Source: a bacterium
Lineage (GTDB): Bacteria > SAR324 > NAC60-12
NCBI GenBank assembly: GCA_965233585.1
Contig: CBDDTI010000745.1
Location: 128,001-192,000, forward strand
DNA length: 64,000 nucleotides
Reading direction: 5' to 3'
A program made the position numbers and the translations under genes. Shown here piece by piece: positions 4,663 through 26,571 of the stretch (the first letter of the stretch is position 1; the number at the start of each line of letters is the position of its first letter). Below the pieces are notes generated by a model, which saw only the letters and a list, made by a program, of their open reading frames with translations, was not told where the DNA came from and searched no databases.

Positions 4663-4664
4663 AA

Positions 4665-8580: not shown

Positions 8581-8588
8581 ATTTGAAC

Positions 8589-8700: not shown

Positions 8701-8722
8701 ATTTTGGAAAGAGAATATTGAC

Positions 8723-9832: not shown

Positions 9833-9979
9833 AGGCCAGGTCAAATCAAGTAGAAGATTTGATTCCCAACAACTATGACAAAGTAAAAAATTAAATCTTC
9901 AAAATTTTCTCTTCTGTCAACTATCCTGCCAAATACTCCATTCTGAAACTTAAAGCCAAATGAGTTGTAAGTATCTGTT

Positions 9980-10389
9980 TCACTGGCATTTATAATAGAT
10001 AGTAACTACTGTGGGTTCCTCGCCCAGTAACTTGAAATAATAAGATTTTTGTACTGTAGCCAATCTTGCAGAGGGAAAAATAGTGTATAGAACAAAAATT
10101 GTTCCCCACCCAATAGTCTCTAAAAACTGTATAACCTCTGTATCTTGATCAATATTCCTAGTGATAAGCAATAATGGATTTACCCCCAAGGAACCGATCG
10201 TAAAAAATTCACCATTTTTTTGTAAATTTTTAAGGGTATAGAAGGATCATCATTAATAATAAATTCGTTTTTGGTTAAATTCATAAAATCATCTCTATAG
10301 CTAGTACAAGATGCAATAAGTTGTTCTGCCATGACGTCAGTTGTTAAAGCAAATAAGCAAGTAAAAAACAAAACTGCAATTTTTCTCAT
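9980..10389 (-). pseudogene. Secreted protein gene split by a frameshift, most simply in an A7 tract
   Basis: Signal peptide MRKIAVLFFTCLFALTTDVMA; one extra A at ~10215-10221 joins ORFs 10180-10389 and 9980-10189 (YKKNGEFFTIGSLGVNP). Confidence 0.7.
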
Positions 10390-10521
10390 AACAAACTTCT
10401 AAATTTAAATGAATTGATAGTAAAAATTTTCCAAAAGATGTGAAAAACTGATGAAGGGTACACAAAACCAATCACTCCTGTCAATGCCTGAATTTAAAGT
10501 CTATGGCATTCGCAAAATGTG

Positions 10522-12552
10522 TCAAGACCTGATTTTCTGGGAGCAAAACACGGTGGCGTACAATCCGATTCCGATGAGGTAGCACCAGTTTTGATTGCCT
10601 AACCCGATAACAGGCGAGACAATGTTAGGTAAAAACATCAGGGGAATGATTGCAAACAGCAAGGCGCTTTCAAAAAGGTTGTTTCGTTTGATGAAGTAAC
10701 GTTGTGTCAGGCAAGAAAAGGCAAACATTCCAACAATGGCAGTTCCAAAGATGACAGCAATTCGGAAAGGGTCGGTTATCCAGACCCACGTTGAAGGTGA
10801 TGTTGGGACTCCCACACTTTCAATCAAAATGAGTTCATTGTTAAAAAAGAACATAAACGGTAAAATCGCTGTCCTTATGTCGTATGAAAAACCCTGTATT
10901 CCTGTTTTAATAGGTTCAGACCGAGCAATGCCACTTGCTGCATAAGCTGCTAATCCAACAGGAGGTGTGTCATCAGCTAAAATTCCAAAATAAAAGACAA
11001 ACAAATGTGCGGCAATCGCTGGCACGATGTAGCCGTTGTCTTCTGCTAAAATCAAAATGACAGGAGCTGTTAAACTTGCCATCACGATATAGTTGGCAGT
11101 TGTTGGCAATCCCATTCCCAAAATCAACGAGGTCACACCCGCTAAAATCAAGATTAAAATAATGTTGTTACCTGCAATCGCTTCTACCACTTCCACCAAG
11201 ACTTGACCGATGCCTGTGAGAGTGATTGAACCAATCACGATGCCTGCAATTCCTGTTGCCACAGCGATTGGAATTGAGTTTTTTGCCCCTGTCACGAATC
11301 CGTTTAAAATGTCATAAAAGCCTTGTAGAAAAAGTGCTTTGGTCAGAGGAGTTTTTGTGAGCAATGCTTTAATGGGGTGTTGAAGCAACATAATGAGTAG
11401 CAAGAACATAATCGCATTATATGCGGCTAGTGCTGTGGACTGCCTTGCAAACAAAAGGCTGTACAGGAGAAAGAAAATGGGGACTAGGTAATGGATTCCA
11501 CTCAAGAAGGTTTTGACAAATGCAGGTAATTGTTTGCGGTCCATGCCTTCTAATCCCAATTTTAAACTTTCCAAATGCACAATGTAAAAGAGCGCAAAAT
11601 AGGAGACGAAAGCAGGAATGAATGCAGAGATGATGACGTCAGAATAGGCAATGCCTAGAAATTCAGCAATGATGAATGCTGCCGCTCCCATAATCGGGGG
11701 CATCAACTGACCGTTGGTGCTTGCTGCCACTTCTACTGCTGCTGCTTTTTCAGGTGTGAAGCCTGTCTTTTTCATTAAAGGAATTGTGAACGTTCCTGTT
11801 GTGACAGTGTTCGCAATGGAACTTCCTGACATAATTCCAGTGAAACCACTTGCGACAACACTTGCTTTAGCTGGTCCTCCCCTGAACGTCCCAAGCAGCG
11901 CATAAGCTAAATCAATGAAGTATTTGCCTGCCCCTGCTTTGTCAATCAAAGCACCAAACAAAACAAACAAAAAAATAAATCCTGCAGACACTCCCAATGA
12001 CACACCAAAAATCCCTTCTGACGTTAAGAACAGATGCCCTGCTAATTTGTGAAGGCTTGCTCCTTTGTGTGCAATCATATCAGGAAAGTAGCGTCCAAAA
12101 AGGTCATACAAGATGAACACAATGGCAATACAGCTCAATGCCAATCCTAAAGAACGGCGACCTGCCTCCAACAAAATGACAATTCCTACTAAAGCAACAA
12201 CAATGTCAAGGGTGATGTAAGCCCCTGGACGCAGCGAAAGCTCTTCGTAAAAAATGGCAATATACAGCATGACCATTGAGGCAACAACTGCCATGATGAA
12301 GTCATACCAAGGAATGCGATGAAGTAACTGAGTGTTTTTGTAGAGAGGATAAAGCAAAAATGCTAAGAAAATAGCAAAAGCAATATGAATGGAACGAATG
12401 ATGTCATTGGTGATGGGTGCTAAAACGACAAACAGCTGAAAACAAGACCAGACCAATGCAACACCAGAAGTCAGCCAAAACTCATAAGATTGAGGTTGAA
12501 AACTCCTGACACCCTCTAATTCAGTGAGTAATTGTTCCTCTTTCTGTTCCAT
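10522..12552 (-). CDS. TAXI-TRAP fused 4TM/12TM permease
   Basis: RGGPAKASV, SGSSIANTVTTG, GQLMPPIMGAAAF, GMGLPTTANY, DDTPPVGLA. Confidence 0.93.
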   Translation of the reverse strand: MEQKEEQLLTELEGVRSFQPQSYEFWLTSGVALVWSCFQLFVVLAPITNDIIRSIHIAFAIFLAFLLYPLYKNTQLLHRIPWYDFIMAVVASMVMLYIAIFYEELSLRPGAYITLDIVVALVGIVILLEAGRRSLGLALSCIAIVFILYDLFGRYFPDMIAHKGASLHKLAGHLFLTSEGIFGVSLGVSAGFIFLFVLFGALIDKAGAGKYFIDLAYALLGTFRGGPAKASVVASGFTGIMSGSSIANTVTTGTFTIPLMKKTGFTPEKAAAVEVAASTNGQLMPPIMGAAAFIIAEFLGIAYSDVIISAFIPAFVSYFALFYIVHLESLKLGLEGMDRKQLPAFVKTFLSGIHYLVPIFFLLYSLLFARQSTALAAYNAIMFLLLIMLLQHPIKALLTKTPLTKALFLQGFYDILNGFVTGAKNSIPIAVATGIAGIVIGSITLTGIGQVLVEVVEAIAGNNIILILILAGVTSLILGMGLPTTANYIVMASLTAPVILILAEDNGYIVPAIAAHLFVFYFGILADDTPPVGLAAYAASGIARSEPIKTGIQGFSYDIRTAILPFMFFFNNELILIESVGVPTSPSTWVWITDPFRIAVIFGTAIVGMFAFSCLTQRYFIKRNNLFESALLFAIIPLMFLPNIVSPVIGLGNQNWCYLIGIGLYATVFCSQKIRS

Positions 12553-12565
12553 TGGTTTTTTGTGG

Positions 12566-12805
12566 TTAGGAAAATTCTAAAATTGGAATGGCATCATTTC
12601 CTCCTGCCGTAGCTTTTGGAAGAGGTTGACCATCTGCTTGATAGAGTGCAATGATTTCTTCAACCATTTGACATAGCTCCGCAAAAACTTGGTATTCATC
12701 TGTTCCATGGCATCCTCCATAAAAAAGCCCGGGGCAACTTCCTATAAAACATTGATCTTTTTCCGACCACTCCACAATTTTGATGTAATTCAAACTTGAT
12801 TTCAT
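12566..12805 (-). CDS. hicB: HicB-like antitoxin (short form)
   Basis: IVEWSEKDQCFIGSCPGL..GCHG...PLP; overlaps hicA stop. Confidence 0.85.
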   Translation of the reverse strand: MKSSLNYIKIVEWSEKDQCFIGSCPGLFYGGCHGTDEYQVFAELCQMVEEIIALYQADGQPLPKATAGGNDAIPILEFS

Positions 12806-12999
12806 TTTTTTGCTTCCTGAATCGCTAGTTTCACTGCTTTTTCTTGATAATGTTTTGCATCGGCATTCAGATTTCCAGATATAGTAATAGGCATGGAAAC
12901 TTTGATGTGGGTGAAATTTCTATGACTTCCTTTGCCTCCTCTATTGACAAAACCTGCCTGTTCTAAATCTGTAATCAATTCTCTAACCTTACGAGGCAT
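12802..12999 (-). CDS. hicA: HicA mRNA interferase toxin
   Basis: 65 aa; LEQAGF...GKGSHRNF HicA signature. Confidence 0.9.
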   Translation of the reverse strand: MPRKVRELITDLEQAGFVNRGGKGSHRNFTHIKVSMPITISGNLNADAKHYQEKAVKLAIQEAKK

Positions 13000-13038
13000 C
13001 GCTCCAATACAACAAGTAATGAATGTTTTGTCTTTCCT

Positions 13039-13241
13039 TTAATACGAACAATAAGTACTACCAAAAAAAACTCTATAAATCTGTCCGTCCGAACCTTTAT
13101 AAGTTCCTATATATCCATGTTGTAACCATATTTTCCCCAATCACAACTAATTAGTGTGGCGTACATTCCACCTATAGTATATGCTTGCAATGATACTGCA
13201 GTAAGCCAGCAGATAAAAAATAAACTCACAATTTTTTTCAT
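13039..13241 (-). pseudogene. Small secreted Tyr/Gly-rich protein gene with 1-bp frameshift
   Basis: MKKIVSLFFICWLTAVSLQA signal, then ATLISCDWGKYGY / HGYIGTYKGSDGQIYRVFFGSTYCSY*; 203 bp, one base short of 68 codons. Confidence 0.7.
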
Positions 13242-13289
13242 AATGTACCCTAAAAAATTTAAATCATAACGTTAAGTCATTGTAAAATA

Positions 13290-13309
13290 CCTCCCTAGTC
13301 ATAGGGAGG
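13290..13309 (-). terminator. Hairpin after TAXI binding-protein gene
   Basis: CCTCCCTA-gtca-TAGGGAGG perfect inverted repeat. Confidence 0.65.
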
Positions 13310-13330
13310 TTGTTCAAAACAAGAAGTCAA

Positions 13331-14275
13331 CTAAAGTAACCCTTGTTCTTCATAATACTTTTTAGCTCCATCATGGAGGGGAGCGCTCAAGCCTTCAAGC
13401 AAAGACTTTTTGGTGATTTTAGAATAGGCAGGGTGCAGTTTTTTGAAGGAGTCAAAATCATTTAAAATCGCTTTGGTGATGGTGTAAACAGCATGGTCGC
13501 TCGTGTTAGTGCTAGAGACTAATACTGCTTTGACCCCAAAACTTTCTACATCGTTAGAAATCCCCTTATACAAACCACCTGCAATGACTCCTTTGGCATA
13601 GTAAGGATACTTCTTGATTAGACCATCTACTGTCTTTCCTACGATTGGCACGATTCTAATTGGTGTGGAGTTTGCCGCATCTTTGAGATTAGCTGCAGGG
13701 TGTCCAACAATGAAAAAATAGCCGTCAATTTTTTGGTCTCTTAACGCATCAGGTGCTTCAGATGACCTCAAACTTCCTGCTAGCTTTAAATCATCTTCAA
13801 CAATTCCATATTCTTTGAGCAAGATTTTGGAAGTTGCCCGTGTTCCACTACCGAAGTTGTCAAGGTTAATTTTTTTCCCTTTCACATCTTCAATCTTACG
13901 AATCCCAGACCTTTGACTTGCAACAAAAGTCACAATTTCAGGATAAATTGCCATGACAGACCTTAAACCTTTGTAAGGCTTTCCCTCAAATTTTCCTGTC
14001 CCTTGATGTGCCTGATACACAACATCACTTTGTGCCATTCCCAAATCAAGCTCTTTTGATTTGATGTTGTTGATGTTGTAAACTGAACCACCTGTTGACT
14101 CAACACCGCATCGGACTTTGGACTCCTTTTTGTACTTGTTGACCAAACGGCAAACCGCCCCACCAGTAGGATAATACGTTCCCGTCACCCCACCCGTTCC
14201 AATCGTCACAAATTCAATGGCAAATGCAGGCAGAACAAACCCCAACATTGAAACCAAACTCACTATTCTCTTCAT
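13331..14275 (-). CDS. TAXI family TRAP solute-binding protein
   Basis: IGTGGVTGTYYPTGG, STGGSVYN, GSGT, PLHDGAKKYYEE. Confidence 0.95.
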   Translation of the reverse strand: MKRIVSLVSMLGFVLPAFAIEFVTIGTGGVTGTYYPTGGAVCRLVNKYKKESKVRCGVESTGGSVYNINNIKSKELDLGMAQSDVVYQAHQGTGKFEGKPYKGLRSVMAIYPEIVTFVASQRSGIRKIEDVKGKKINLDNFGSGTRATSKILLKEYGIVEDDLKLAGSLRSSEAPDALRDQKIDGYFFIVGHPAANLKDAANSTPIRIVPIVGKTVDGLIKKYPYYAKGVIAGGLYKGISNDVESFGVKAVLVSSTNTSDHAVYTITKAILNDFDSFKKLHPAYSKITKKSLLEGLSAPLHDGAKKYYEEQGLL

Positions 14276-14295
14276 TATGAACTCCTAAATTGAAA

Positions 14296-14395
14296 TGAAT
14301 TGACCATCAAAATCTTCCACAGAATTATGAAAGATTTGGCAAGGATACACAAAACTCATCACTTATGCAAGTCTTTTTTTTAATCTTTGTGAGAT
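14296..14395 (-). promoter_or_regulatory. Repeated promoter module, copy A
   Basis: Minus strand TTGCAT (14365-14370)-N17-TATCCT (14342-14347); near-identical to copies B and C. Confidence 0.7.
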
Positions 14396-14532
14396 TTAGT
14401 CTTGAACTAGCTTTTTGAACTAGCATTGATGACAAATCAAATGATTAAAGTTTTTGTGTAAACCAGTGATTTTTTCAGGGATCCAAACTGCATTGCCAAG
14501 ACAATGAGTTTGCCCCCCTTCAAAGACTTGAC

Positions 14533-15618
14533 TCAACCGTAGCGATACGGACGACCTGCTTTTTCCATATCAGCGTTGTATTGTTTGATGATTTTGACAA
14601 TTTTCGCTTTGGTTTCTGATTCTTCAGCAATTTCGTCCCAGAACTTATAAGCGGCTTGTTCTACTTGACTCCATTCTTCATCAGGGATACTTGTGAGTTT
14701 CATCTTTGTCCCGTTGACTCGCAATGCTGCCTCACCTCCCCAATACCACCATTGACGGTAATAGTGAGAGCTATCCATCGTCACTTTTAAAAGTTCTTTC
14801 AAGTGTTCAGGCAGTTCTTCATAACGTTCCATATTGGCAAAGAAAGAGCCTACCCAAGCCCCTGAAATGTTATTTGTGAGAAAGTAATCCGTCACATCTG
14901 CCCAGCCAACTGTGTAGTCTTCAGTGATTCCAGACCAAGCAATTCCGTCTAATTCTCCCGTTTGTACAGCGACTTCAATGTCTTCCCAAGGCAAGGTGAC
15001 AGGCACGACTCCAAATTGGCTAAGGAAACGTCCTGCTGTAGGAAAGGTAAAAACACGTTTGCCTTTGAGGTCTGCTAAACGATAAATTGGTTCTTTAGTC
15101 GCAAAATGACAAGGGTCCCAAGAACCTGCAGAAATATGTTTGATTCCCACTTTGCTATATTCTTCTTGCCAAATTTCATTGAGTCCATACTGATTGAAAA
15201 GCACTGGCACATCTAAGGAATAACGTGAGGCAAAGGGAAAGTATCCTCCAAATACCGTCACCTCCGTAGGAGACGCCATAGAATCATCATCAGATTGAAC
15301 AGCATCAATGGTGCCGCGTTGCATGGCACGGAACAATTCACCAGTGGGAACTAATTGGTCAGCAAAGTACAACTTGATTTCCATTTCATCACCAGCAATT
15401 TTATTGAAACTTTCAATAGCAGGTTTGATGACGTGTTCTGCCAAAGATGCCCCAGCGTAAGTTTGCAATCGCCAAGTAATTTTTGATTTTGCAATGGCAG
15501 GAGAGGCAATGCTTGTCCCCACTGCAGTTGCTGCCGCAACTCCCGTTCCTTTCACAAAATTTCTTCTTGTGACAAGGTCGTTTTTTTTGGTATCGCTACT
15601 TTTGATTGAATCACTCAT
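14533..15618 (-). CDS. dctP: DctP-type TRAP solute-binding protein with Tat signal
   Basis: TRRNFVK twin-arginine leader, WRLQT, DLKGKR, next to dctQ/dctM. Confidence 0.92.
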   Translation of the reverse strand: MSDSIKSSDTKKNDLVTRRNFVKGTGVAAATAVGTSIASPAIAKSKITWRLQTYAGASLAEHVIKPAIESFNKIAGDEMEIKLYFADQLVPTGELFRAMQRGTIDAVQSDDDSMASPTEVTVFGGYFPFASRYSLDVPVLFNQYGLNEIWQEEYSKVGIKHISAGSWDPCHFATKEPIYRLADLKGKRVFTFPTAGRFLSQFGVVPVTLPWEDIEVAVQTGELDGIAWSGITEDYTVGWADVTDYFLTNNISGAWVGSFFANMERYEELPEHLKELLKVTMDSSHYYRQWWYWGGEAALRVNGTKMKLTSIPDEEWSQVEQAAYKFWDEIAEESETKAKIVKIIKQYNADMEKAGRPYRYG

Positions 15619-15822
15619 AATTTTCCTTTTGAGCTAAAAGTTTAAAAAAAGTGTCACAACTGAAACACTGATGTAACACGAAAAATAACAACATTTTGAA
15701 AGATCCTATTTCAGTCTCTGTGAGTTAAGAGTCTTTGCACAACCCACTTCAAATGATTGACTGCGTCTTCCCTGTCAGGTACGAAAAGGGTGCAAATCTG
15801 TTTCAGTCAACATGACTTCCAG

Positions 15823-17145
15823 CTATCTGCCGTAGAATTGTTCTGGTAGCCAAAGAGCAATTTGTGGAAAAATCATCACTAAGGCTAAAGCAACAATCAT
15901 AATCACGACAAATGGACTAATAGAAGCATAAATATCTCTAATGGTGATGCTTGGTGGTGCCATAGCACGCATCAAAAAAAGATTGTATCCAAAAGGGGGC
16001 GTCATGTAAGCAATTTGTGTGGTAATGGTATAAAGCACTCCGTACCATACTAGGTCAAAACCCAGTACCTTGACCAAAGGAATGTATAAAGGCGCTACGA
16101 TGACCAACATGGCAGTATCGTCCAAGAAAGTCCCCATGATGATAAAACTCAGCTGCATCAGAATTAAAATCATCCAAGGGTTAAGTTCTAATTGCTGTGT
16201 GAAGAATATTTCAATAGCCCGCACTGCCCCTAATCCATCAAAAACTGCCCCAAAGCCTAAAGCTGCCAAAATGATCCACATGAACATACAAGAAATCCCT
16301 AAAGTTTGCTTGAGACAAGTTTGAAACACTTCTTTTGTCATACGTCTTTTGACAAAGGCAGTGAGTAATGAAGCTAATGCGCCAATGGCAGATGCTTCAA
16401 CCAAAGAAGCCCAACCGTTGATAAAAGGGACAATCATCACAGCAAAGATTCCAATCGGTAATAAACCAGCTTGAAGCAGTTTTATTTTTTCAGACCAAGA
16501 CACTTGACGATGTTCTGAACTCATTGCAGGAGCTAAGTGGGGGTAAATTTTGCAAATGACTGCAATGTAGATGATAAACATGGCTGCCATCATCAAACCC
16601 GGAAGTATTCCAGCTAACCATAATTGACTTACAGGTTGACGAGCAATCATCGCATACAAAACCAACACCACTGACGGAGGCACAAGAATCCCCAAAGAAG
16701 AACCTGCTTGAATGACACCAGTCACCATGCGCTTATTGTAACCACGCCTTAGTAATTCTGGTAAAGCGATGGTTGAACCAATAGCCATACCTGCCACAGA
16801 AAGTCCATTCATCGCAGAAATCAAAACCATCAAAAGGATCGTGCCAATGGCTAAGCCTCCATTCAAAGGTCCCATCCAGACATGCAACATTTTGTACAAA
16901 TCATCAGCAATCTTAGTTTCTGAAAGCACATAGCCCATGAAAATAAAGAGAGGCAACGTCAACAAAGGGTACCACTTCATCAATTTCATGGCTGCAGAAA
17001 AAGGAAGACTACTGCCTCCAGTCCCCCACAACAACAAGGCTGCAATCGCAGCAGTGAAACCAATTGCTCCAAAAACACGTTGCCCTGTGAATAAAAGAAG
17101 CATCATGCAAGAGAACATGAAAATGGCTATCATTTCATAGGACAC
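15823..17145 (-). CDS. dctM: TRAP large permease
   Basis: LGILVPPSVVLVLY, TPPFGYNLF. Confidence 0.93.
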   Translation of the reverse strand: MSYEMIAIFMFSCMMLLLFTGQRVFGAIGFTAAIAALLLWGTGGSSLPFSAAMKLMKWYPLLTLPLFIFMGYVLSETKIADDLYKMLHVWMGPLNGGLAIGTILLMVLISAMNGLSVAGMAIGSTIALPELLRRGYNKRMVTGVIQAGSSLGILVPPSVVLVLYAMIARQPVSQLWLAGILPGLMMAAMFIIYIAVICKIYPHLAPAMSSEHRQVSWSEKIKLLQAGLLPIGIFAVMIVPFINGWASLVEASAIGALASLLTAFVKRRMTKEVFQTCLKQTLGISCMFMWIILAALGFGAVFDGLGAVRAIEIFFTQQLELNPWMILILMQLSFIIMGTFLDDTAMLVIVAPLYIPLVKVLGFDLVWYGVLYTITTQIAYMTPPFGYNLFLMRAMAPPSITIRDIYASISPFVVIMIVALALVMIFPQIALWLPEQFYGR

Positions 17146-17663
17146 ACCATCTCCTTTCCATAGAGTTTGTAAACATCTTTAATGAAAATTGCAATAGCTT
17201 GCAAGATCATCAAAAAGATACCAAGAACCATAATGATTTTGATTGGGTACAAATAAGGACGCCATGCCGTAGCGCTTCGTTCATTGTATTCTAAAGCGTA
17301 CATGGTGCTGTCTATTGCGCCGTAAAACAAAACACCTAGATAAAAAATCATAAAAAAAATAGTCATGCAGTCTAGTTTAATCTTGTTCCGTTCTGAAAGT
17401 TTTTCATAAAAAACGTCCATACGAACGTTAGCGTTCATTTGCAAGGCGTAAGGACCTCCTAAAATATAATAAGCCACCATCGCAAACTGCGCCATTTCCA
17501 AAGTCCAAAGAGAAGGCACAAAAAAAGTTTTAGAGACAGAAGACCACACCAAAATGAGAAGCATGACAAAAATACCATAGCCCACCCATTTCCCAATGAG
17601 TTGATTCAGCTTGTCAACAACTTGAACATAAAAACAAAAAAATTGATTCATCAAATCACTCAA
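17130..17663 (-). CDS. dctQ: TRAP small permease
   Basis: Four hydrophobic segments, NVRMDVFY motif, adjacent to dctM. Confidence 0.9.
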   Translation of the reverse strand: MSDLMNQFFCFYVQVVDKLNQLIGKWVGYGIFVMLLILVWSSVSKTFFVPSLWTLEMAQFAMVAYYILGGPYALQMNANVRMDVFYEKLSERNKIKLDCMTIFFMIFYLGVLFYGAIDSTMYALEYNERSATAWRPYLYPIKIIMVLGIFLMILQAIAIFIKDVYKLYGKEMVCPMK

Positions 17664-17743
17664 TAAATTGTAATTGCCTCATCATCTAAAAAAAGATTAA
17701 AAAAATCAAATCATTCAGCTCAAAGTATAAAAACTCTTTCGCA

Positions 17744-19180
17744 TCAAATAATCTCAAAATAACGTTGCAAATGCCAAATTTCTTTTTGTTGTTTTTCAAA
17801 CCCTGCTTTGTCAGTTGAAAGACTATTGGAGTTTGTCATAGATTCCAAAAATTTTTGCTGTCGTGTCTCTTCCCAGAGTCGGGTGTAAGCAAAATGTTTA
17901 ACAAAGGGAGTTCCAAACCACTCATGCGCCATTTCAGATTGAAGCAAAAGTTCAGCAGCTTGTGTTAAAGAACTGGAAAGTTTCAGCTCTTGAGGAAACT
18001 TTTGAGCGTAGGCATTGCCAGCAACGGGAGAAGAAGGGTTTATTTTGTTCTTGATTCCCCACAATCCAGAGGCGATGGCAGCAGAAAGAGCAAGATACGG
18101 ATTCATGTCTGCACCAGCTATGCGATACTCTACCCGTTGAGAAGCAGCTGAACCAGTGATTGCACGTAAAGCACAGGTTCTATTTTCAATGCCCCACGTT
18201 GCGTCGGTTGGCGCCCAAAACCCCGGAATAAGACGTGTGTAACTATTGCAGTTGGAAGCGACTAAAGCAAGCAGTTCTGGCATCAGTTTTTGTTGTCCTC
18301 CAATAAACCAAAGCATTTCTTGGGAAAGCGTCCCGTCAGTTGATTCATCATAAAAGACAGGCTTTTCATCATGGTCTTGGAGAGAGAGATGCAAATGTCC
18401 AGATTGTCCGGGGTAGATTGGCGACCATTTTGCCATGAAGGTTGCCATCATCTCTTGTTTCTGTGCCAGAACTTTCGTAAAAGTTTTAAACAAGGTCGCA
18501 TCGTCTGCCGCTTTGAGTGCTGGCTGATACTTCAATGCCGCCTCTATCACTCCGGGACCAGTTTCTGTATGAATGCCTTCTAAAGGCATGTTCATCTCCT
18601 GACAAAGATCCATCAAATCATGGTAAAACGCATCATGTACTGACGAACGCAAAACGGAGTAGCCAAACATTCCCGGTGTGAACGTTTTAAGGTTTTGGTA
18701 GTTTTTTCCTCGCACACTTTCAACAGTTTCTTGAAAAAGAAAAAACTCAAATTCTGCAGAAGCCAACACCCTAAACCCCGTAGATTCTGCTTGCTTTAAA
18801 ACCCTTTTGAGCAAGGAACGTGGACACACTTCTGCAGCAGAACTTTCTGAAAAGTCAGCCAGACAAAGCGGGGTCATCTTTTTCTCCAAAGGAAGCATTC
18901 GGCAGGTTGTCAAATCCAAAGTCGCCCAAGCATCAGGGAATCCTTTTTGCCAGCCCGTAAAAGAGTCTTGCTCGTAAAGCTCATCAGCACTATCCCAACC
19001 AAAAATCACATCGCAAAAACCCAGACCTTTTTGAACAGCAGAAAGGAATTTTTCAGAACTCACATACTTCCCACGCAAAACTCCATCTAAATCAGTGATT
19101 GCTAGCTTCACTCTGTCAATCGCTTGTTGTTCCAAAAACGTTGCCGCTTCTTCAACAGTTTTTAATTCAAGTGGAATCAT
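17744..19180 (-). CDS. Glutamine synthetase-like gamma-glutamyl-amine ligase
   Basis: DLDGVLRGK, EFEFFLF, HTETGPG, SGHLHLSL, WGIENR, EYRIAGADMNPY; catabolic neighbours. Confidence 0.88.
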   Translation of the reverse strand: MIPLELKTVEEAATFLEQQAIDRVKLAITDLDGVLRGKYVSSEKFLSAVQKGLGFCDVIFGWDSADELYEQDSFTGWQKGFPDAWATLDLTTCRMLPLEKKMTPLCLADFSESSAAEVCPRSLLKRVLKQAESTGFRVLASAEFEFFLFQETVESVRGKNYQNLKTFTPGMFGYSVLRSSVHDAFYHDLMDLCQEMNMPLEGIHTETGPGVIEAALKYQPALKAADDATLFKTFTKVLAQKQEMMATFMAKWSPIYPGQSGHLHLSLQDHDEKPVFYDESTDGTLSQEMLWFIGGQQKLMPELLALVASNCNSYTRLIPGFWAPTDATWGIENRTCALRAITGSAASQRVEYRIAGADMNPYLALSAAIASGLWGIKNKINPSSPVAGNAYAQKFPQELKLSSSLTQAAELLLQSEMAHEWFGTPFVKHFAYTRLWEETRQQKFLESMTNSNSLSTDKAGFEKQQKEIWHLQRYFEII

Positions 19181-19189
19181 AAGAATTTT

Positions 19190-20008
19190 TTAAGTCATTT
19201 GAGTAGTGGTCATTGATGACATAGTGAAGTGCAACCAATTTCTGATTTCAACACTATGTTGTGGATAATGAAGAACCTCTTCAGGTAGATTGATTTCTTT
19301 TTGAAGGTTTTGCATGAAGTCTTCTATTCCTTCATCGGTGTCCATGTGTTGTTCTGTCAAAGTGTTCCCCATCTCTTTCAAAAGACCAAGCATGTCTTGA
19401 CATTGAAACTCGGGATGATACTGCACCCCTACAAAAACCCCTCCTTCAAATTCTATTTGTGCCGCTTGAACTGAACTATGTTGATTGCTTGCTAGTACAG
19501 TAGAACGTGCAGGGAGCTTTTCCACTTCGTCATAATGAACACAGAAACTTTGAAAGTTATCAGAACGTTTCTTCAAAAGAAAATGCTTTTTCCCTTTATC
19601 AGTTAATTTGATAGGAGTCGTGATTCCTATTTCAATGCCATTTGGTGAATCTCTTACTTGACCTCCTGCTGCCACTGTTGCCACTTGTAGCCCCCAACAA
19701 CTTCCGTAAAACGGAACGTGACTTTTAAAAACATCTTGAGCAAATTCAATTTGACGCAAGACCTCTGTTTTTTGATCCATCACACGCAGAGATGAGCCTG
19801 TCCACAAGACTCCAGTATATTGTTGCAATTCACGCACTGAGGGCAATTTGAAGTCAAGCTGTGCAGGAAAAGCAACATCAATCGCCGCATGAGGCACTTC
19901 TTCCATGACCAAATTGGAGAACTGCTGATGATAAACAGTTCGTTGCAAGGTCTGCATCTCCTTCAACCTAGCAGGAGTCTGTCCCTCTACTATTAAAAAT
20001 TTTTTCAT
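19190..20008 (-). CDS. Class I glutamine amidotransferase-like protein, putative gamma-glutamyl hydrolase
   Basis: GSCWGLQ nucleophile motif, QYHPE. Confidence 0.85.
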   Translation of the reverse strand: MKKFLIVEGQTPARLKEMQTLQRTVYHQQFSNLVMEEVPHAAIDVAFPAQLDFKLPSVRELQQYTGVLWTGSSLRVMDQKTEVLRQIEFAQDVFKSHVPFYGSCWGLQVATVAAGGQVRDSPNGIEIGITTPIKLTDKGKKHFLLKKRSDNFQSFCVHYDEVEKLPARSTVLASNQHSSVQAAQIEFEGGVFVGVQYHPEFQCQDMLGLLKEMGNTLTEQHMDTDEGIEDFMQNLQKEINLPEEVLHYPQHSVEIRNWLHFTMSSMTTTQMT

Positions 20009-20052
20009 TCTATTACTAAAAATTTTTGCATTCGGTGGATTGACCTGCTTTT

Positions 20053-21225
20053 TTATAAACGATTCAAATCTCCAAGCACCGCCGCAGAAAACAACTTGGT
20101 CAAATCGTCAGCACAAAGCGGTTTAGCATTGGTTGGTGTAGAAGGGTCAGCTTCTGCCAAATCTCCAATGGATTCTGCTTGATCCAAAGGAATCTCAATT
20201 TCTCCAAGACTATGGGGAATGTTCAATTCCTGACGCAACTTCAAAAAAAACTCCAAAACACCTGATGTTCCTTGCCCGGGCAACTGAAGATAATTGCTCA
20301 AATAATCCATTTTTTCTCCAATGGCATCAGCATTTTGTTTGAGTGCATAAGGTAAAAGAATCGCATTGGTCAGTCCATGATGTGCATTATAGATTGCACC
20401 AATAGGATGAGCTAAAGAATGGACTGACCCCAATCCTTTTTGAAAGGCAGTAGCTCCCATCGTTGCCGCAACAAGCATCTGTCCACGTGCTTCCAAATCC
20501 TGACCATTTTGAAAAGCACGAGGCAGATAAGTTTTGACCAAACGCATTGCTTCCAGTGCAATCCCATCTGCCATAGGGTGATAACTCGGTGAACAAAATG
20601 CTTCCCAAGCATGAGTCATCGCATCAAGACCTGTCCATGCTGTGAGGTGAGCAGGCAGTGCCAAAGTCAATTCAGGGTCAGCAATGACAAGTGACGGGAG
20701 CATAGTAGGGTGAAAAATAATCACTTTACGTTGGCTTTGTGTGTTCACAATCACTGATGCACGCCCCACTTCAGAGCCTGTTCCTGCCGTAGTAGGAATG
20801 GCAATGACAGGCGGGAGGTTGGTTGCTTTGGCTTTTTTCCAATTTTCTCCTACATCTTCAAACTCCCAAAGTGGCAAGTCTTGTTCTGCCATCAAGGCAA
20901 TGGTTTTTCCTGCATCAAGACCTGACCCTCCACCCAAAGCGATGACTCCATCATGTTTTCCTTCCCTATAAACTTCAACACCATTGAGAACATTTTCCCC
21001 AGTAGGATTTCCTTGAACATCAGAATAAAGACTCACTTGCAACCCTTGACTGGTTAGTAGTTTAAGTGTGTTTTGAACAACTGGAAGATGAGCCAATCCT
21101 GCATCGGTGACCAATAACGGCTTTTGGATATTCTTATCACGGCAAGCTCTTGGCAGTTCTTGGATACGACCACGTCCAAACCAAATAGTGGTGGGATAAT
21201 TCCAATTAGCTTGTGGTAAAGTCAT
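20053..21225 (-). CDS. Iron-containing alcohol dehydrogenase
   Basis: GGGSGLDAGK, PTTAGTGSE, DAMTH, HSLAH, HHG. Confidence 0.93.
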   Translation of the reverse strand: MTLPQANWNYPTTIWFGRGRIQELPRACRDKNIQKPLLVTDAGLAHLPVVQNTLKLLTSQGLQVSLYSDVQGNPTGENVLNGVEVYREGKHDGVIALGGGSGLDAGKTIALMAEQDLPLWEFEDVGENWKKAKATNLPPVIAIPTTAGTGSEVGRASVIVNTQSQRKVIIFHPTMLPSLVIADPELTLALPAHLTAWTGLDAMTHAWEAFCSPSYHPMADGIALEAMRLVKTYLPRAFQNGQDLEARGQMLVAATMGATAFQKGLGSVHSLAHPIGAIYNAHHGLTNAILLPYALKQNADAIGEKMDYLSNYLQLPGQGTSGVLEFFLKLRQELNIPHSLGEIEIPLDQAESIGDLAEADPSTPTNAKPLCADDLTKLFSAAVLGDLNRL

Positions 21226-21252
21226 CTTGGTTTTTGGAACGAGCAAAAGGTT

Positions 21253-22635
21253 TTAGAGTTTCAAGTGATAAGATTTAGGGCGTGTGAGGTGTTGATAACC
21301 AAGTGCGGAAAGCGTCACGCCACGTCCAGTATTTTTGACTCCAGTCCAAGCTAATGCTGGGTCAAGATAATCACAACGATTCATAAACACAGTGCCTGTC
21401 TCTAGGAATTGTCCCAGCTGTTTAGCACGTTCTACATCTTGAGTCCAAAGCGAAGCTGTCAATCCATACTGGCTGTCATTCATCAGCTGAAGGGCTTCTT
21501 GGTCATTGCTCACTTTCATTATGCCAACAACGGGTCCAAAACTTTCTTCTTGCATCACTGCCATCTCGTGATTGACATTCACTAAAACGTGAGGTGCCAG
21601 ATAAGGCGTGCCAGCACATGAGTTTTTAAAATGACTTTCATCAATCAAAGATGTTGCCCCTGAATGAACAGCCTGTGCAATTTGGCTTCTGACAAAATCT
21701 GCCGCTTGAGTTTTCACCATTGGACCTAAATTGGTGTCCTCTTCTAGTGGATTTCCAAGACGATATGCTTTGGTTTCTTCTACAAAACACTCTACAAATT
21801 CCTTGTAAATTGCTTGTTCCACATAAATTCTCTCAATACCACAACAAGATTGTCCAGAATTGAAAAATGCACCATCTACCAAACTTGCTACTGCTTGATT
21901 CAAATTGGCATCTGAACAGACGTAAGCAGGGTCTTTCCCCCCCAATTCCAAACCACAGGGAATGAACTTTTCAACAATGTTTTTTTGGACAACTTTTCCT
22001 CCTTCTACTGAACCTGTAAAAAACACTCCACAGGTGTCTTGATGAGCGACTAAAACGGCAGCCAGTTCGTGATTCAAGTGCAAATGTTGAAAGACTCCTT
22101 GAGGAAACCCTGCTTGTTGTGCCGCCTGACTGTAACGTTCTGCAACCAATGGAGTTTGGAAAGAATGCTTCAAAATCACAACATTTCCTGCAACCAATGC
22201 GGGTATGATGGCATTCACCGATGTCAGCCATGGATAATTCCAAGGACTCAAAACTACGACAACCCCTAAAGGTTCATGGGCAATCCAACGTTCAAAACCT
22301 TTCTTTTGATTAGGCAAGTCAGGGGCAAGGGCTTCTTGGGCAATCTCAATCATGTAGCCAGCACGTTCTGCAAAGCCGTCAATCTCAAAAGGGGTTTGAC
22401 TGATGGGTCTCCCCATTTGCCAAGTGATTTCTTCTGATAGTTGTTTTTTTTGGTCAATAAGAATCTCAACAAAACGTGTGACAGATGCAATCCGTTCTTC
22501 CAGCAAAAGTGATTTCCATTCAAGAAAACCCTGCTTTGCTTGTTTCAAAGCATTTTCAATGTCTTGATGGGTCTGTTGTTCTCCTTCTTTGTAAATTGAC
22601 TGGTCAACAGGGCTAATGGTTTGATAACGTCGCAT
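21253..22635 (-). CDS. Aldehyde dehydrogenase
   Basis: PWNYP, FTGS, LELGGKDP, GQSCC, EESFGP; ATG 22635 preferred over the track start 22683. Confidence 0.94.
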   Translation of the reverse strand: MRRYQTISPVDQSIYKEGEQQTHQDIENALKQAKQGFLEWKSLLLEERIASVTRFVEILIDQKKQLSEEITWQMGRPISQTPFEIDGFAERAGYMIEIAQEALAPDLPNQKKGFERWIAHEPLGVVVVLSPWNYPWLTSVNAIIPALVAGNVVILKHSFQTPLVAERYSQAAQQAGFPQGVFQHLHLNHELAAVLVAHQDTCGVFFTGSVEGGKVVQKNIVEKFIPCGLELGGKDPAYVCSDANLNQAVASLVDGAFFNSGQSCCGIERIYVEQAIYKEFVECFVEETKAYRLGNPLEEDTNLGPMVKTQAADFVRSQIAQAVHSGATSLIDESHFKNSCAGTPYLAPHVLVNVNHEMAVMQEESFGPVVGIMKVSNDQEALQLMNDSQYGLTASLWTQDVERAKQLGQFLETGTVFMNRCDYLDPALAWTGVKNTGRGVTLSALGYQHLTRPKSYHLKL

Positions 22636-22807
22636 GTGGCGTCTTTTGTGATGAGAAATTGATTGACAGTTGGTGTAAATCACTTTTTTTCATATCTCTC
22701 GCACTTCTGATTCTTTCAAGGGGTATGATGTTCTCTGTGTTTTAAAAAATTGTTTTCATTTAAATGAATCATCAAAAACCTTTCACAGAATTATGAAAGA
22801 TTTGGCA

Positions 22808-22836
22808 AGAATACACAAAACTCATCACTTATGCAA
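22808..22836 (-). promoter_or_regulatory. Promoter module copy B, upstream of the ALDH operon
   Basis: TTGCAT-N17-TATTCT; CTTTCA-N8-TGAAAG palindrome at 22780-22799. Confidence 0.7.
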
Positions 22837-22938
22837 GTCTTTTTTTAATCTTGGTGAGATGAGTTGAAAAATACCAAATCATTTTTGGAAAAGGTGTGAT
22901 AGCATTTTGCTGTTTTTTGACTTCTGACAAATTGACTG

Positions 22939-23313
22939 ATGAATCGTCTCATTTACTACACATATTTTGCCTTCTTTGCCTTGGGTGCAGGAGTCGCAGA
23001 AGCAGGGATTACACTAGTTTGGTTTGATGAATTTTTCCCTTTATGGAGCAAGGAAACCATTTTATTCACAAGGTTTGCAGGGTCGTTGATTGGTGGGGCT
23101 TTCTTGATTGCCAAATTCAATCTTTCTCGGTTTTGTTATGTCACACTAGGTCTGGCTCATTTGCTGTTGCTTGTTCCGTCTGATGAAACAGGGATTTTTG
23201 CTTTTTTTATACGTGGCGTAGTGGGAATCATCTTGGTCATTTTTCATAACACACAGATTGGCATTTTGATTGAGAATTTGGAGAGGCGTCAGAAGGTGAT
23301 GAATCTGGCACAG
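22939..23313 (+). pseudogene. Truncated duplicate of the MFS gene 25004-26134
   Basis: First ~125 codons nearly identical to the full gene, then reads into attC sequence. Confidence 0.9.
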
Positions 23314-23333
23314 ACGGTGGGACGTTATTCAAT

Positions 23334-23411
23334 GCCTAACGCCAAAAACCAGAGGCTGACAGCACAGAGCGAAGCGGCGTTTTGGCAGTCCGCTGGAGTA
23401 CCTTGTTAGGC
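23334..23411 (-). mobile_element. Integron attC site 1 (78 bp)
   Basis: GCCTAAC AAGGTACTCCAGCGGACTGCCAAAACGCCGCTTCGCTCTGTGCTGTCAGCCTCTGGTTTTTGGC GTTAGGC: complementary RYYYAAC/GTTRRRY ends, imperfect stem, upstream ORF stop inside the first box. Confidence 0.85.
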
Positions 23412-23513
23412 TTTTTTGTCTTTTGGTGATTTGTGATTTATGGCTTGATACGCAACGACACCAAGACCAGCGATAAAGAATAAGAATGTGAATATAAATA
23501 GGTATTGTCCCAT
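23406..23513 (-). CDS. 35-aa single-pass membrane peptide (cassette gene)
   Basis: MGQYLFIFTFLFFIAGLGVVAYQAINHKSPKDKKA*; TAATG overlap with upstream ORF; stop inside attC. Confidence 0.65.
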   Translation of the reverse strand: MGQYLFIFTFLFFIAGLGVVAYQAINHKSPKDKKA

Positions 23514-23737
23514 TACAATTTCAGACGGTCCAAACATTTAAAAACCTTGCGATTTATAGCCGCAATAATGACAGTGATAAAAACAATAGACATTGAGCAA
23601 AGAAGTAAAACTGCTATATCTTGTTCTTGAAAGTTTTGTACAAACCAAGCCAACAACGATAAATCGGTTGCTACAAAAATGGCAAAAACAACTTTATACC
23701 AACCAATTTCTTCTTTGATTCTAGCTTCCTCAGACAT
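23513..23737 (-). CDS. Small two-TM membrane protein (cassette gene)
   Basis: 74 aa, two hydrophobic segments, lies between two attC sites. Confidence 0.75.
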   Translation of the reverse strand: MSEEARIKEEIGWYKVVFAIFVATDLSLLAWFVQNFQEQDIAVLLLCSMSIVFITVIIAAINRKVFKCLDRLKL

Positions 23738-23783
23738 GGTTTTGATTTTATCAAGTCTGCGGTGAAAAGCAAAATTTGAACGA

Positions 23784-23843
23784 ACTTAACGCCCAAATAA
23801 GCGGTGGCTTTTTGATGTCCGAGTAGCATTTGCCTTGTTATGC
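23784..23843 (-). mobile_element. Integron attC-like site 2 (60 bp)
   Basis: GCATAAC AAGGCAAATG..CGG...CCG..ATTTGGGC GTTAAGT, starting 2 bp after the nuclease stop. Confidence 0.72.
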
Positions 23844-23845
23844 AC

Positions 23846-24796
23846 TCACTCAACCCCAATTAACAATTCTGGAGCATGCCGAATTACAAATCTAGCAACA
23901 TCAGAGCCAGCTATTATATCTATGGCTTTACCTATTTTTTCTGAGGCTTGCCTAACACAATCTTCTAACTCTTCTGTTTTTTCTGCGGTAGTAATAAGCA
24001 GTCCACCATCAGCCTCGTACTTTTTAATACCATTCACAATTTGATCTACAGCATTTAAATCATAGTGTTTCCCTTCATAGGATTTTGCCTGCACTATCAA
24101 TCTACTGGTAAAACTAACCCCTATTATTGGGTTTTGAAACTCTACAATTAAATCCGCTCCATTATCAGTCTTCCACCCAAATCCGTTTTGTATGGATTCA
24201 ACATTGGGCATATTATCAAAAATTCTATGTAAAAACCTTTCAAACTCCTTGCTCTTATTCATTTCGTGAATATAACCACTAATTTGTGGTAGCAATTCAC
24301 TCACCTTTTCTTTGAGGTGAATAACCCCTCGAGACTCGTCTTGATTCTCTGAAAATTGATTCCTTTTGATGTTATCCAATGATTGTAAAAAATCTTTCAC
24401 CTGCAACACTCTCTGTCCTCTGCGCATGGGTGCCAAATTAACAGATGGCAGAATATTCACATCTTTACGATTAAATTCGACAATAGTTTTAGGGTCAACA
24501 GGAATGTAATTATTGAAATCACGACCCCAAGAACATTCTACTCCATCATCAAAATCATACTCCCCAGTAGATTGAACCGCCACACAATTGTCATAGCTTG
24601 GATTATTGATATGGACTATCCAGTCTCCTTTTTTGATTCTCAGTAAAAAAGCATTTTTTCCAAGATAGTTTTTTCTTAAGTCACCGCCTTGTGCCCATCC
24701 AAAACGAGATTTACCTAATTTGATTGACTCATAAACTTTTTTACGAGCGTCTTCGCAATTATCTATTTTTGCAAAAGCATAAACTTGTGTTTCCAT
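23846..24796 (-). CDS. Mrr-like (type IV) restriction endonuclease, cassette gene
   Basis: C-terminal EFE...GADLIV...IVQAK motif and GGLLITT; lower GC than flanks. Confidence 0.8.
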   Translation of the reverse strand: METQVYAFAKIDNCEDARKKVYESIKLGKSRFGWAQGGDLRKNYLGKNAFLLRIKKGDWIVHINNPSYDNCVAVQSTGEYDFDDGVECSWGRDFNNYIPVDPKTIVEFNRKDVNILPSVNLAPMRRGQRVLQVKDFLQSLDNIKRNQFSENQDESRGVIHLKEKVSELLPQISGYIHEMNKSKEFERFLHRIFDNMPNVESIQNGFGWKTDNGADLIVEFQNPIIGVSFTSRLIVQAKSYEGKHYDLNAVDQIVNGIKKYEADGGLLITTAEKTEELEDCVRQASEKIGKAIDIIAGSDVARFVIRHAPELLIGVE

Positions 24797-24837
24797 TTTA
24801 TTCCTTCATTACTATTGAATTTAAACGAATTGACCAC

Positions 24838-25378
24838 CAAAAACCTTTCACAGAATTATGAAAGATTTGGCAAGAATACACAAAACTCATCACTTATGCA
24901 AGTCTTTTTTTAATCTTGGTGAGATGAGTTGAAAAATACCAAATCATTTTTGGAAAAGGTGTGATAGCATTTTGCTGTTTTTTGACTTCTGACAAATTGA
25001 CTGATGAATCGTCTCATTTACTACACATATTTTGCCTTCTTTGCCTTGGGTGCAGGAGTCGCAGAAGCAGGGATTACACTAGTTTGGTTTGATGAATTTT
25101 TCCCTTTATGGAGCAAGGAAACCATTTTATTCACAAGGTTTGCAGGGTCGTTGATTGGTGGGGCTTTCTTGATTGCCAAATTCAATCTTTCTCGGTTTTC
25201 TTATGGCACACTAGGTCTGGCACATTTGCTATTGCTTGTTCCGTCTGATGAAACAGGGATTTTTGCTTTTTTTATGCGTGGCGTTGCAGGAATCATCTTG
25301 GTCATTTTTCATAACACACAGATTGCCATCTTGATTGAGAATTTGGAGAAGCGTCAGAAGGTGATGAATCTGGCTCAG
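24838..25378. repeat. 541-bp direct duplication, right copy
   Basis: Matches 22773-23313. Confidence 0.95.
24873..24901 (-). promoter_or_regulatory. Promoter module copy C, upstream of the cassette array
   Basis: TTGCAT-N17-TATTCT, ~77 bp upstream of the nuclease ATG. Confidence 0.7.
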
Positions 25379-26134
25379 TTGATGTTTGGTTTAGGTGCTG
25401 CCTTCTTTCCATTGATGATGTTTGTCCTCAGCTGGCTTGGCACACAGCTTTCTACAATCATCACTTTGAGCATGATTTGCCTTGCAACTACCTATTTTGT
25501 CTTAGCCTTTTTATTTAAAGGCTGCTACGACTCCCAAACAGAAGAAAAAAGAAGCCAGCAAGAAGGTCAAACCAGCAAGCTCAATCTTGCTTTTTTAGGA
25601 ATTTACGTCAGCGTCTTTTTCATGTATGCAGGCATAGAAAACGGGTTGGCGGGATATTTACACTCGTGGGTTCTGGAGTATTTGACCTTTGATGCAGAGT
25701 ATGAAACGTATTTAATTTATTCGTTGTTTTGGCTATGCCTTGCGATAGGCAGACTTTGGGGGTATTTTTTGGGTTTCAGAATGTCTTCCTTTCAGATTGT
25801 CATGCTGAATAGTGTTGGAATGCTGGCAGGGGCAGGTTTAGTCATTTCTGGGCAAATTGTTATAGGTGTCATGTTGCTTGCTTTGAATATAGGACCAATG
25901 TTTGCCAACCTCTATTTATTGGTATATCGCACTTGTGGAACAACTGAGCAAATTTCTGCTTCTACCATGACTGCCAGCGGTTTAGGGTCTATGTTGATTG
26001 GCTCACAACTCAATCGCGTCCTAGATTTCTTTTTCCAAACAATTATCCTGCTGATTGTGATAATGACCTCCCTGATTCTTTTTGCAGAGATGAAGTATAA
26101 GCACAAAATGGCATCAACGCACAGAGGTCATTGA
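25004..26134 (+). CDS. MFS transporter (FucP/TsgA-like)
   Basis: ~12 hydrophobic segments; FGLGAAFFP, FMYAGIENG, LAIGRL, GPMFA. Confidence 0.8.
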   Translation: MNRLIYYTYFAFFALGAGVAEAGITLVWFDEFFPLWSKETILFTRFAGSLIGGAFLIAKFNLSRFSYGTLGLAHLLLLVPSDETGIFAFFMRGVAGIILVIFHNTQIAILIENLEKRQKVMNLAQLMFGLGAAFFPLMMFVLSWLGTQLSTIITLSMICLATTYFVLAFLFKGCYDSQTEEKRSQQEGQTSKLNLAFLGIYVSVFFMYAGIENGLAGYLHSWVLEYLTFDAEYETYLIYSLFWLCLAIGRLWGYFLGFRMSSFQIVMLNSVGMLAGAGLVISGQIVIGVMLLALNIGPMFANLYLLVYRTCGTTEQISASTMTASGLGSMLIGSQLNRVLDFFFQTIILLIVIMTSLILFAEMKYKHKMASTHRGH

Positions 26135-26335
26135 CAGGTCAAGGTGAGCAATGACTAAAACGCAACCTCTCTCGGTCATTCCGTGCCTGACGCGGAATCT
26201 ATCACCAAACCAAGCACAGATTCCTAACATGACTGGATTCCTGCCTTCGCTCCGAATGACAAAAAAAGAGGCAAGAATGACCAAATGCAACACAGCAAAA
26301 TCCTCCTGTCATTGCTCACCTTGACCCGCAATCTC
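26135..26335. repeat. REP/REPIN-like palindrome cluster 3
   Basis: 26176-26260 is an inverted copy of 1144-1253; 26258-26313 matches 36661-36716. Confidence 0.85.
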
Positions 26336-26447
26336 TTTTTTGTTCTTGTTTTATTTTTTTCTTTGCTTTGTTTCAACTTCTTCCTCTATCTTCCTTCAAA
26401 AAATGCTAGGGTTTTATTTTTTGAGTATTTTCAATTTAGGGGTAAAG

Positions 26448-26519
26448 ATGTCAAAACGTTTAGATAGAGTAGAAAAAATCTTGGAAGAAGCTAGTGCCTT
26501 TGCTAAAGAGTACAAATGA
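26448..26519 (+). pseudogene. Short ORF, possible N-terminal gene remnant
   Basis: AGGGG RBS-like then MSKRLDRVEKILEEASAFAKEYK*. Confidence 0.35.
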
Positions 26520-26571
26520 AGGTTGAACAATGCAGTGAAATGCTATAGATTGTAGATTTTCTACTTTATTT

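Follow-up and report, generated by a model that had tools for sequence, protein, structure and literature searches.

A promoter leader present five times in a SAR324 genome reads as a probable stack of insertions with long target duplication

The window that we analyzed is a 64,000-nucleotide stretch of DNA from a bacterium of the SAR324 lineage (NAC60-12; GenBank assembly GCA_965233585.1, contig CBDDTI010000745.1, positions 128,001 to 192,000 of the forward strand), and its element of interest is a promoter leader found at the starts of a TAXI solute-binding protein gene and of a major facilitator superfamily (MFS) transporter gene. We found this one leader five times within 15 kb, with graded divergence (69%, 87-90%, and 97%). 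We favor, with a probability of roughly 0.6, the explanation that the locus arose through stacked "insertions with long target duplication," probably formed by single crossover of circularized incoming DNA.

Results

An initial annotation of this DNA had described three direct copies of a ~100-bp module, each heading a different minus-strand block, and comparison of the copies bears this out: M1 (Table 1) matches the module of M3 (24799-24925) at 87% over 133 bp and that of M2 (22758-22860) at 90% over 108 bp, and both are direct repeats of it. The stated size does not hold for copies 2 and 3, which sit in a repeat of 556/560 bp, and to the three copies must be added two more, at 10366-10510 (M0) and 13222-13254. 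When the full 12-Mb assembly was searched with the module by BLASTN, we recovered the three copies and one weaker local copy and none outside the locus; the module is thus no dispersed repeat.

M2 and M3 form the left ends of the longer repeat (22758-23313 and 24819-25378), which is identical at 542 of 560 positions (96.8%) and contains the promoter side of the MFS gene together with its codons 1-125. The divergence is mosaic, with an identical tract of 362 bp at 22773-23134 and 12 differences within the last ~180 bp, an arrangement with a chance probability of ~1.6e-11. Since identity adjoins 7% divergence, we infer gene conversion between copies 2 and 3, and because these copies have been homogenized, the order of the insertions is unreadable from identity. 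M3 is not a plain copy of M2, since it retains 25 bp more of the TAXI leader, and its descent from that leader is supported by a remnant of the TAXI start in which 13 of 14 nucleotides are kept (20 of 2000 shuffles were as good). Within the duplicated 5' end of the MFS gene, the copies differ by six synonymous and six nonsynonymous changes on 47 and 148 sites, respectively (Fisher p 0.04); the changes fall on both copies against an outgroup, and the fragment has no stop or frameshift in 125 codons. Judged from these codons, the changes look as would be expected of diverged working alleles.

M0 is identical to 14251-14396, at M1, in 101 of 147 positions and, self-matches aside, ranks first among 17140 candidate starts in similarity to the TAXI start. 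The 34-bp stretch at 13222-13254, which resembles the TAXI ribosome-binding site (RBS) and start in 28 of 34 positions, is the second non-self match among 369 M[KR][KR] starts and ties in score with one unrelated gene among all 17140 candidates, and on this ranking it is likely, but not certainly, a relic of the TAXI leader. The position of M1 is the probable native place of the leader. The duplicated stretch varies by event (34, ~107-145, and 556 bp, with differing ends), and because the boundaries vary among copies, there is no fixed crossover site.

We compared contigs over 8300-24830 from four public runs, which represent two samples of one study and are possibly the source of the assembly. 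No run contig spans the whole locus, with breaks at both shared tracts (the 362-bp identical tract and a 36-bp shared word), and at least two runs have a contig running through each novel junction in the compared stretch. All four runs contain the return joint from 24830 to 22773, the diverged part occurs in both of its letter versions, and no difference was listed inside the identical tract across runs. In the three runs that have a separate contig for the shared tract, its depth is approximately the sum of the two exits (5.67 versus 6.3, 14.7 versus 16, and 3.54 versus 4). The tandem arrangement is the simplest path through these contigs. Depths of the cassette block and the MFS 3' end were 2.7/3.6, 9/7, 2/2, and 3.7/3.8, while the 8-kb block was 1.4 and 2.0 times as deep as the TAXI side in one sample and level with it in the other run covering both; block depth differences vary twofold between two runs of one sample and are read only as no large change. 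Of the excision or amplification initially proposed for the blocks, that of a 2065-bp unit would be possible by recombination at the 362-bp tracts, as at any direct repeat, but the depths show no clear amplification or loss. Only 23 of the 436 contigs of at least 8 kb are gene-dense (3.4 Mb of 10.2 Mb), and most of the 12-Mb assembly looks like eukaryotic host DNA; expansion of the genome to 12 Mb by duplication and insertion was rejected on this count.

The reported motif TTGCAT-N17-TAT(C/T)CT is present on the minus strand of each of the three copies, at 14370, 22836, and 24901, ahead of the first gene of each block. The aligned counterpart in M0, TTGACA-18-TACCCT, forms a promoter-like site at 10484, so that a minus-strand -35/-10 pair is kept in all four long copies (M0-M3). 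Of the 12 positions of the sigma-70 consensus, the motif agrees with 7, and a consensus scan, which returned 30 sites versus 37.1 expected, did not list it. Across 1161 upstream regions, the TTGCAT-N17-TA...T class occurs 9 times in sense and once in antisense orientation (1.6 in shuffled sequence), and up to 3 of the 9 sense sites are the module copies themselves. From its motif, a minus-strand promoter in the module is plausible. On the plus strand, TTGACC-17/18-AATTAT is found in M1 and M3, and four of its bases (TGAC) are lost in M2; we would guess that this loss suits a copy with no intact MFS gene left to drive. The palindrome CTTTCA-N8-TGAAAG, reported as part of the module, is perfect in M2 and M3 only, while M1 reads CTTCCA and M0 is without it. 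As a candidate regulon operator, the palindrome was rejected: its exact N8 matches in the genome are the two module copies only, and with one mismatch allowed there are 37 matches at N8 versus 29-37 at other spacings, with no enrichment.

The block behind M3 carries two attC sites, a small cassette, and an Mrr-type restriction endonuclease gene. The attC family label rests on the RYYYAAC...GTTRRRY layout and not on IntegronFinder, and scores come from a covariance model, R1, built from 46 public sites (44 metagenomic and 2 viral), which is not IntegronFinder's model. Both window sites reach ~38 bits (38.1 and 37.6), and no other match in the genome lies below E 0.3. The attC sites of the initial annotation are therefore genuine by R1, though both are decayed; neither folds better than shuffles, and site 2 cannot form a hairpin. 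A pattern taken from the window attC was found in 120 metagenome stretches, and of the 80 examined, 60 have a closing core, 31 of these at 88 nt; the family related to site 2 includes metagenome sites of 82-94 nt. The site 2 pattern had 0 matches in viral contigs, the cassette region had no match to plasmids, and an Rfam scan of 8000-27000 gave 0 matches. A loose attC pattern matched the genome 51 times versus 55 in the control, and attC heuristics returned nothing in the window and noise only on the three large contigs. A collapsed attC at about 13260-13275 (TAACGTTA) had no score with R1 and was rejected. The endonuclease has 260 relatives, the best 120 of which are at 61-79% identity, with the named ones from unrelated phyla. 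A single-protein locus search with it confirmed 0 of 78 candidates, and 19 loci were then taken from the alignment; an attC-like site, judged by eye, follows 2-3 of these 19 genomic relatives.

A genome-wide search for IntI (TIGR02249) reached at best 51 bits against a cut-off of 265 in this assembly, which is 92.5% complete. Three tyrosine recombinases lie on large contigs, and the two that were scanned are XerC/D-like and below cut-off. The window had been said to hold no integrase or transposase, and we found no Pfam family of either kind among the 60 window open reading frames (ORFs) scanned (28 + 32); the 152-aa ORF at 36006-36464, considered as a possible insertion sequence gene, had no Pfam match and belongs to a small dispersed family. 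The end of the cassette block lies ~20 bp past the attC crossover, and the block's head, before the endonuclease start, lacks a GTTRRRY core. Because neither end is an attC crossover, an integrase did not place this block. We propose that the attC cassettes are passengers from someone else's integron that have since decayed.

The block behind M2 is an 8-kb amine gamma-glutamylation cluster with a transporter of the tripartite ATP-independent periplasmic (TRAP) type, whose binding protein matches PDB 4uab, which we take to be Csal_0678, at E 7e-183. This block had been read as foreign DNA, but its codon usage is host-like (22nd-98th percentile of the genome), and 20 of 44 other genomes of the family also have its TRAP protein. 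Its enzymes are closest to a cluster in one relative, G056, where the gene order differs: aldehyde dehydrogenase (ALDH), alcohol dehydrogenase (ADH), glutamine amidotransferase (GATase), and glutamine synthetase (GS) follow each other at 17744-22683, versus GS-ALDH-ADH-GATase in G056. The two orders are related by circular permutation, as a circle intermediate would give, in one comparison. The TRAP genes of three relatives' loci have no such enzymes next to them. The block is a composite of long standing and not fresh foreign DNA. An ethanolamine gamma-glutamylation operon with the TRAP transporter EtoVWX is described in Phaeobacter MED193 and Chromohalobacter (PMC10132767), and the block resembles that operon in its EtoX-type binding protein, GS-like enzyme, ALDH, and Fe-ADH. 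It differs from the operon as described there in that a class I GATase replaces the amidohydrolase, the block holds no RpiR regulator, and the gene order is another; its GS is only 30-36% identical to GS-like genes beside EtoX in relatives.

The TAXI solute-binding protein is native to the order and occurs in 34 of its 64 genomes. Its gene is adjacent to the permease gene in 15 of 16 relatives' loci, the sixteenth ending before adjacency is visible; here the two are separated by an insert (12566-13254) with a HicA family match by Pfam. The 69-aa ORF behind M0 has no Pfam family and is single copy in the genome. The MFS gene has one relative in databases (71% identity, encoded on a 40-kb ENA contig) and no orthologue in the 87 other genomes of the phylum, and the module was not found in 30 relatives, the genus being without another genome. 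REP-like hairpin clusters (GTCATT...GAATC family) lie at 300-1280, 26138-26355, and 36525-36900, one of them directly behind the MFS gene.

Local direct repeats of low copy number with noncoding parts are not rarer elsewhere in this genome or in a relative: one filter, whose counts include tandem paralogues, returned 20 loci here (2.52 Mb), 12 in relative G005 (0.8 Mb), and 0 in G008 (0.31 Mb). Another direct repeat in the window, unrelated to the module (8578-8700/9944-10073; 97 of 130 identical, 75%) brackets a histone deacetylase-family gene (8723-9832) with atypical codon usage (1.6th percentile; GC content at third codon positions of 0.48), and this pair is probably another insertion with target duplication. 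At C745:208604-210938, a DNA methyltransferase gene and a 275-aa gene lie between a 69-codon 5' fragment and a whole methyltransferase-like gene, with repeats of 258 bp (94%) at 208604 and 210682; a xylulokinase 5' fragment at C746:730750/736777 has the same build. At C746:517540-524271, genes for a rhodanese, a cyclase/arylformamidase-like protein, and an ABC binding protein, which are unrelated and exported, have one common leader of 86-139 bp with a CTGGGA...TCCCAG palindrome, an RBS, and the first 7-10 codons. Two neighboring genes at C747:929277-930410 share 151 bp (79%) of leader and signal-peptide codons. A strict screen for unrelated neighbors sharing a leader, which did not recover the window's own copies, gave, from 15311 near pairs, the C746 triple and a single weak pair, and from 12041 near pairs in G005 a single case.

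Elsewhere in the window, phosphonate biosynthesis genes (phosphoenolpyruvate mutase and a thiamine pyrophosphate-dependent decarboxylase) lie at 2936-6367 and are split by a PIN toxin-antitoxin pair in a low-GC stretch at 4357-5108. A 7-bp tandem array (GATTGCG) occupies 39222-39308, a 48-bp coding repeat lies at 46760-46927, and a 1212-aa protein encoded at 59153-62791 has no Pfam match at E 1e-5.

Table 1. Features of the repeated-leader locus, in window positions
Feature	Position	Strand	Description
69-aa ORF	10180..10389	-	Signal-peptide-like N-terminus resembling that of TAXI
M0	10366..10510	-	Oldest copy: TAXI promoter, RBS, and first codons (TTGACA-18-TACCCT); precedes the 69-aa orphan ORF
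TAXI fused permease	10522..12552	-	DctM + DUF3394 (Pfam)
Insert between TAXI binding-protein and permease genes	12566..13254	-	34-bp relic, interrupted small secreted-type ORF (start 13241), hicA, putative hicB
TAXI solute-binding protein	13331..14275	-	TIGR02122 over cut-off
M1	14264..14395	-	Promoter/leader; TTGCAT-17-TATCCT; palindrome with one mismatch; plus-strand TTGACC-17-AATTAT
Amine gamma-glutamylation block	14533..22683	-	ALDH, Fe-ADH, class I GATase, GS-like, DctQ, DctM, EtoX-type (ethanolamine) TRAP binding protein (Pfam)
M2 + truncated 5' MFS copy (codons 1-125)	22758..23313	.	Left copy of the long target duplication
attC site 1	23334..23411	-	78 nt, degenerate; 38.1 bits with R1; folding z +0.28/+0.48
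Cassette	23400..23737	-	74-aa membrane ORF (23513-23737) and short ORF behind; unnamed clusters at 0.91-0.93, weak
attC site 2	23784..23843	-	37.6 bits with R1; 28 of the 88 positions of the consensus absent, with deletion of the hairpin core
Mrr-type (type IV-like) restriction endonuclease cassette gene	23846..24796	-	PF04471
M3 + 5' part of intact MFS gene	24799..25378	.	Right copy of the long target duplication; TAXI-start remnant at 24799-24811
Intact MFS transporter gene	25004..26134	+	Lineage-specific; Atlas MFS_1 clusters at 0.98

Discussion

Insertions with long target duplication have been described by Furuta (2010; PMC2853133), with repeats of 24-423 bp that are often imperfect and often lie over a start or stop codon; the cases described there have no mobility genes and come mostly from competent species, and amplification through the repeats is cited as shown. 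Serial cases of the present sort may be among those in Supplementary Figure 7 of that paper. The present locus resembles these cases in having a type IV-like restriction endonuclease between long, imperfect, start-spanning direct repeats that are unique to the locus, with no mobility gene. Its direct repeats exceed 30 bp and enclose inserts of less than 20 kb (556/560 bp around 1.5 kb; 108-133 bp around 8.4 kb), they occur as local copies only with no linked mobility gene among the 60 ORFs, and the 556-bp pair, unlike the other blocks, holds restriction-modification cargo (PF04471). The locus differs in that 556 bp exceeds the longest repeat in their Table 3 (423 bp), one leader is reused up to four times, and the cargo also includes attC cassettes, a toxin-antitoxin pair, and a metabolic operon. 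In a laboratory conjugation assay in E. coli with DNA of one-sided homology (PMC3240628), duplications were found in 56 of 60 clones and measured 109-950 bp in the 14 sequenced, a range that covers the main repeats here. That study ascribes the duplications to circularization and a single crossover, while classical homology-facilitated illegitimate recombination, which also starts from one-sided homology, predicts deletion and not duplication; a gene-conversion tract such as that of the present locus is not part of the outcomes it describes. Natural transformation can move cassettes without an integrase (PMC3410848), and ComEC, DprA, and ComM-family genes pass their cut-offs in this genome.

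By the mechanism that we favor, incoming DNA would have carried new genes beside a homologous piece of the TAXI/MFS intergenic region, the donor most simply being a sister strain with other cargo behind the same leader. An illegitimate joint would close this DNA into a circle, which would integrate by one RecA-dependent crossover and leave the homologous piece twice per event, its length set by the position of the joint. Events that duplicate the promoter and RBS would survive, with the resident gene intact and the cargo transcribed, and the 556-bp pair would later have been homogenized over 362 bp by gene conversion.

Several points weigh against this explanation. We found no empty site or intermediate among the relatives searched, which include no close relative, so "insertion" is itself inferred and not based on comparison. 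A single crossover of diverged alleles alone gives no 362-bp identity beside 12 differences and needs the conversion step, and the substitution counts in the MFS copies are small. The 8-kb block, composite and with host-like codons, need not have arrived as one piece. Of 14 control genomes, 10 likewise carry ComEC and DprA, whose presence is no proof of competence.

Tandem duplication in situ of promoter-plus-gene segments, followed by loss or replacement of most of one copy, would need neither a donor allele nor a circle, and we consider it possible but doubtful. The many tandem paralogue arrays with shared leaders in this genome fit it, as does the graded divergence, which would follow from repeated local duplication, and leaders that are joined to new signal-peptide genes agree with a redundant copy having been replaced. 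On the other hand, the stretches between the copies hold no leftover of duplicated cargo and no trace of a second TAXI body, and the MFS fragment has an open frame with changes on both copies.

It is improbable that the leader is a true capture hot spot, whose divergent promoter pair and central palindrome would be preferentially nicked or used as a recombination anchor. If it were, new genes would arrive with a promoter, an RBS, and even a signal-peptide start, and blocks could be dropped or amplified by RecA; together with the C746 triple, this would amount to an integrase-free route giving incoming genes expression and secretion signals. Our literature search for promoter duplication or capture by insertion returned no match, which is no proof of absence from print.

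The initial annotation, which supposed an ancestral divergent TAXI<-P->MFS junction that would have taken two insertions, had gone further, to a dedicated, integrase-free, integron-like platform whose module directs insertion and whose blocks are routinely excised or amplified. Its serial insertion stands in part, in that blocks were added at a duplicated leader, as the TAXI-start remnant in M3 (13 of 14) indicates. The platform itself is very unlikely: the duplicated lengths and ends vary, the pattern has already been described (PMC2853133), and it is not rarer elsewhere, as the loci counted here and in G005 show. The leader does occur five times in 15 kb and nowhere else, and its four long copies keep a -35/-10 pair of a class enriched upstream of genes, but there is no fixed crossover point, and the palindrome is neither conserved nor enriched. 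The excess depth of the 8-kb block in one sample is absent from the second, and the cassette block and the single-copy MFS 3' end are about equally deep. The locus does resemble an integron in outcome, with promoterless cassette genes behind a putative host promoter and the youngest-looking repeat pair beside a fixed anchor. Compared with an integron proper (intI, attI, cassette promoter Pc, and array), it has no IntI, no attI or fixed crossover with a GTTRRRY core, and no recombinogenic attC hairpins, and each block has its own copy of the putative promoter instead of one shared Pc. A CALIN is a cluster of attC sites lacking an integron-integrase (Cury et al. 2016, PMC4889954), and by that definition the locus qualifies, with two same-strand attC sites within 4 kb behind cassette-type genes and no intI nearby or detected in the genome. 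It departs from the CALIN as defined there in that both sites are decayed, one without its hairpin, and the array lies inside a target duplication, behind a putative host promoter.

We regard as highly improbable that the locus is an assembly chimera, with alternative strain alleles placed in tandem by false joins at the 362-bp tract or the 36-bp shared word. The contig breaks at both shared tracts, the possible origin of the assembly in these same runs, and its much non-bacterial DNA would allow for one, but the junctions lie inside contigs in at least two runs, the return joint is in all four, the shared tract is about as deep as its two exits together, and the alternative path needs a 2-kb non-replicating circle at about one copy per chromosome. 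Least credible is site-specific insertion, whether IntI acted on a secondary site or XerC/D on a dif-like site within the module: attC sites and three tyrosine recombinases are present and TTATGAAAGAT resembles one arm of the dif consensus at 8 of 11 positions, but no IntI passes the cut-off, the block runs ~20 bp past the attC crossover and starts without a GTTRRRY core, there is no second dif arm, and site-specific events do not duplicate 556 bp. A Xer/pdif module, with two 11-bp arms and a 6-bp spacer per end, was rejected for the same locus, where inspection found one arm-like stretch only.

Gene entry with long target duplication and without a recombinase has been described. The locus looks like a layered new example of this known recombination scar at one spot and not like a new gene-capture machine. 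It is an unusually layered case from one uncultured genome, in which one leader has five copies of graded age with a visible conversion tract. Its interest would rise if insertions proved, in sister strains, to be drawn to the leader more than selection for intact, expressed genes explains. Altogether, integron cassettes stranded behind a putative host promoter represent one concrete way in which a CALIN can arise and be expressed.

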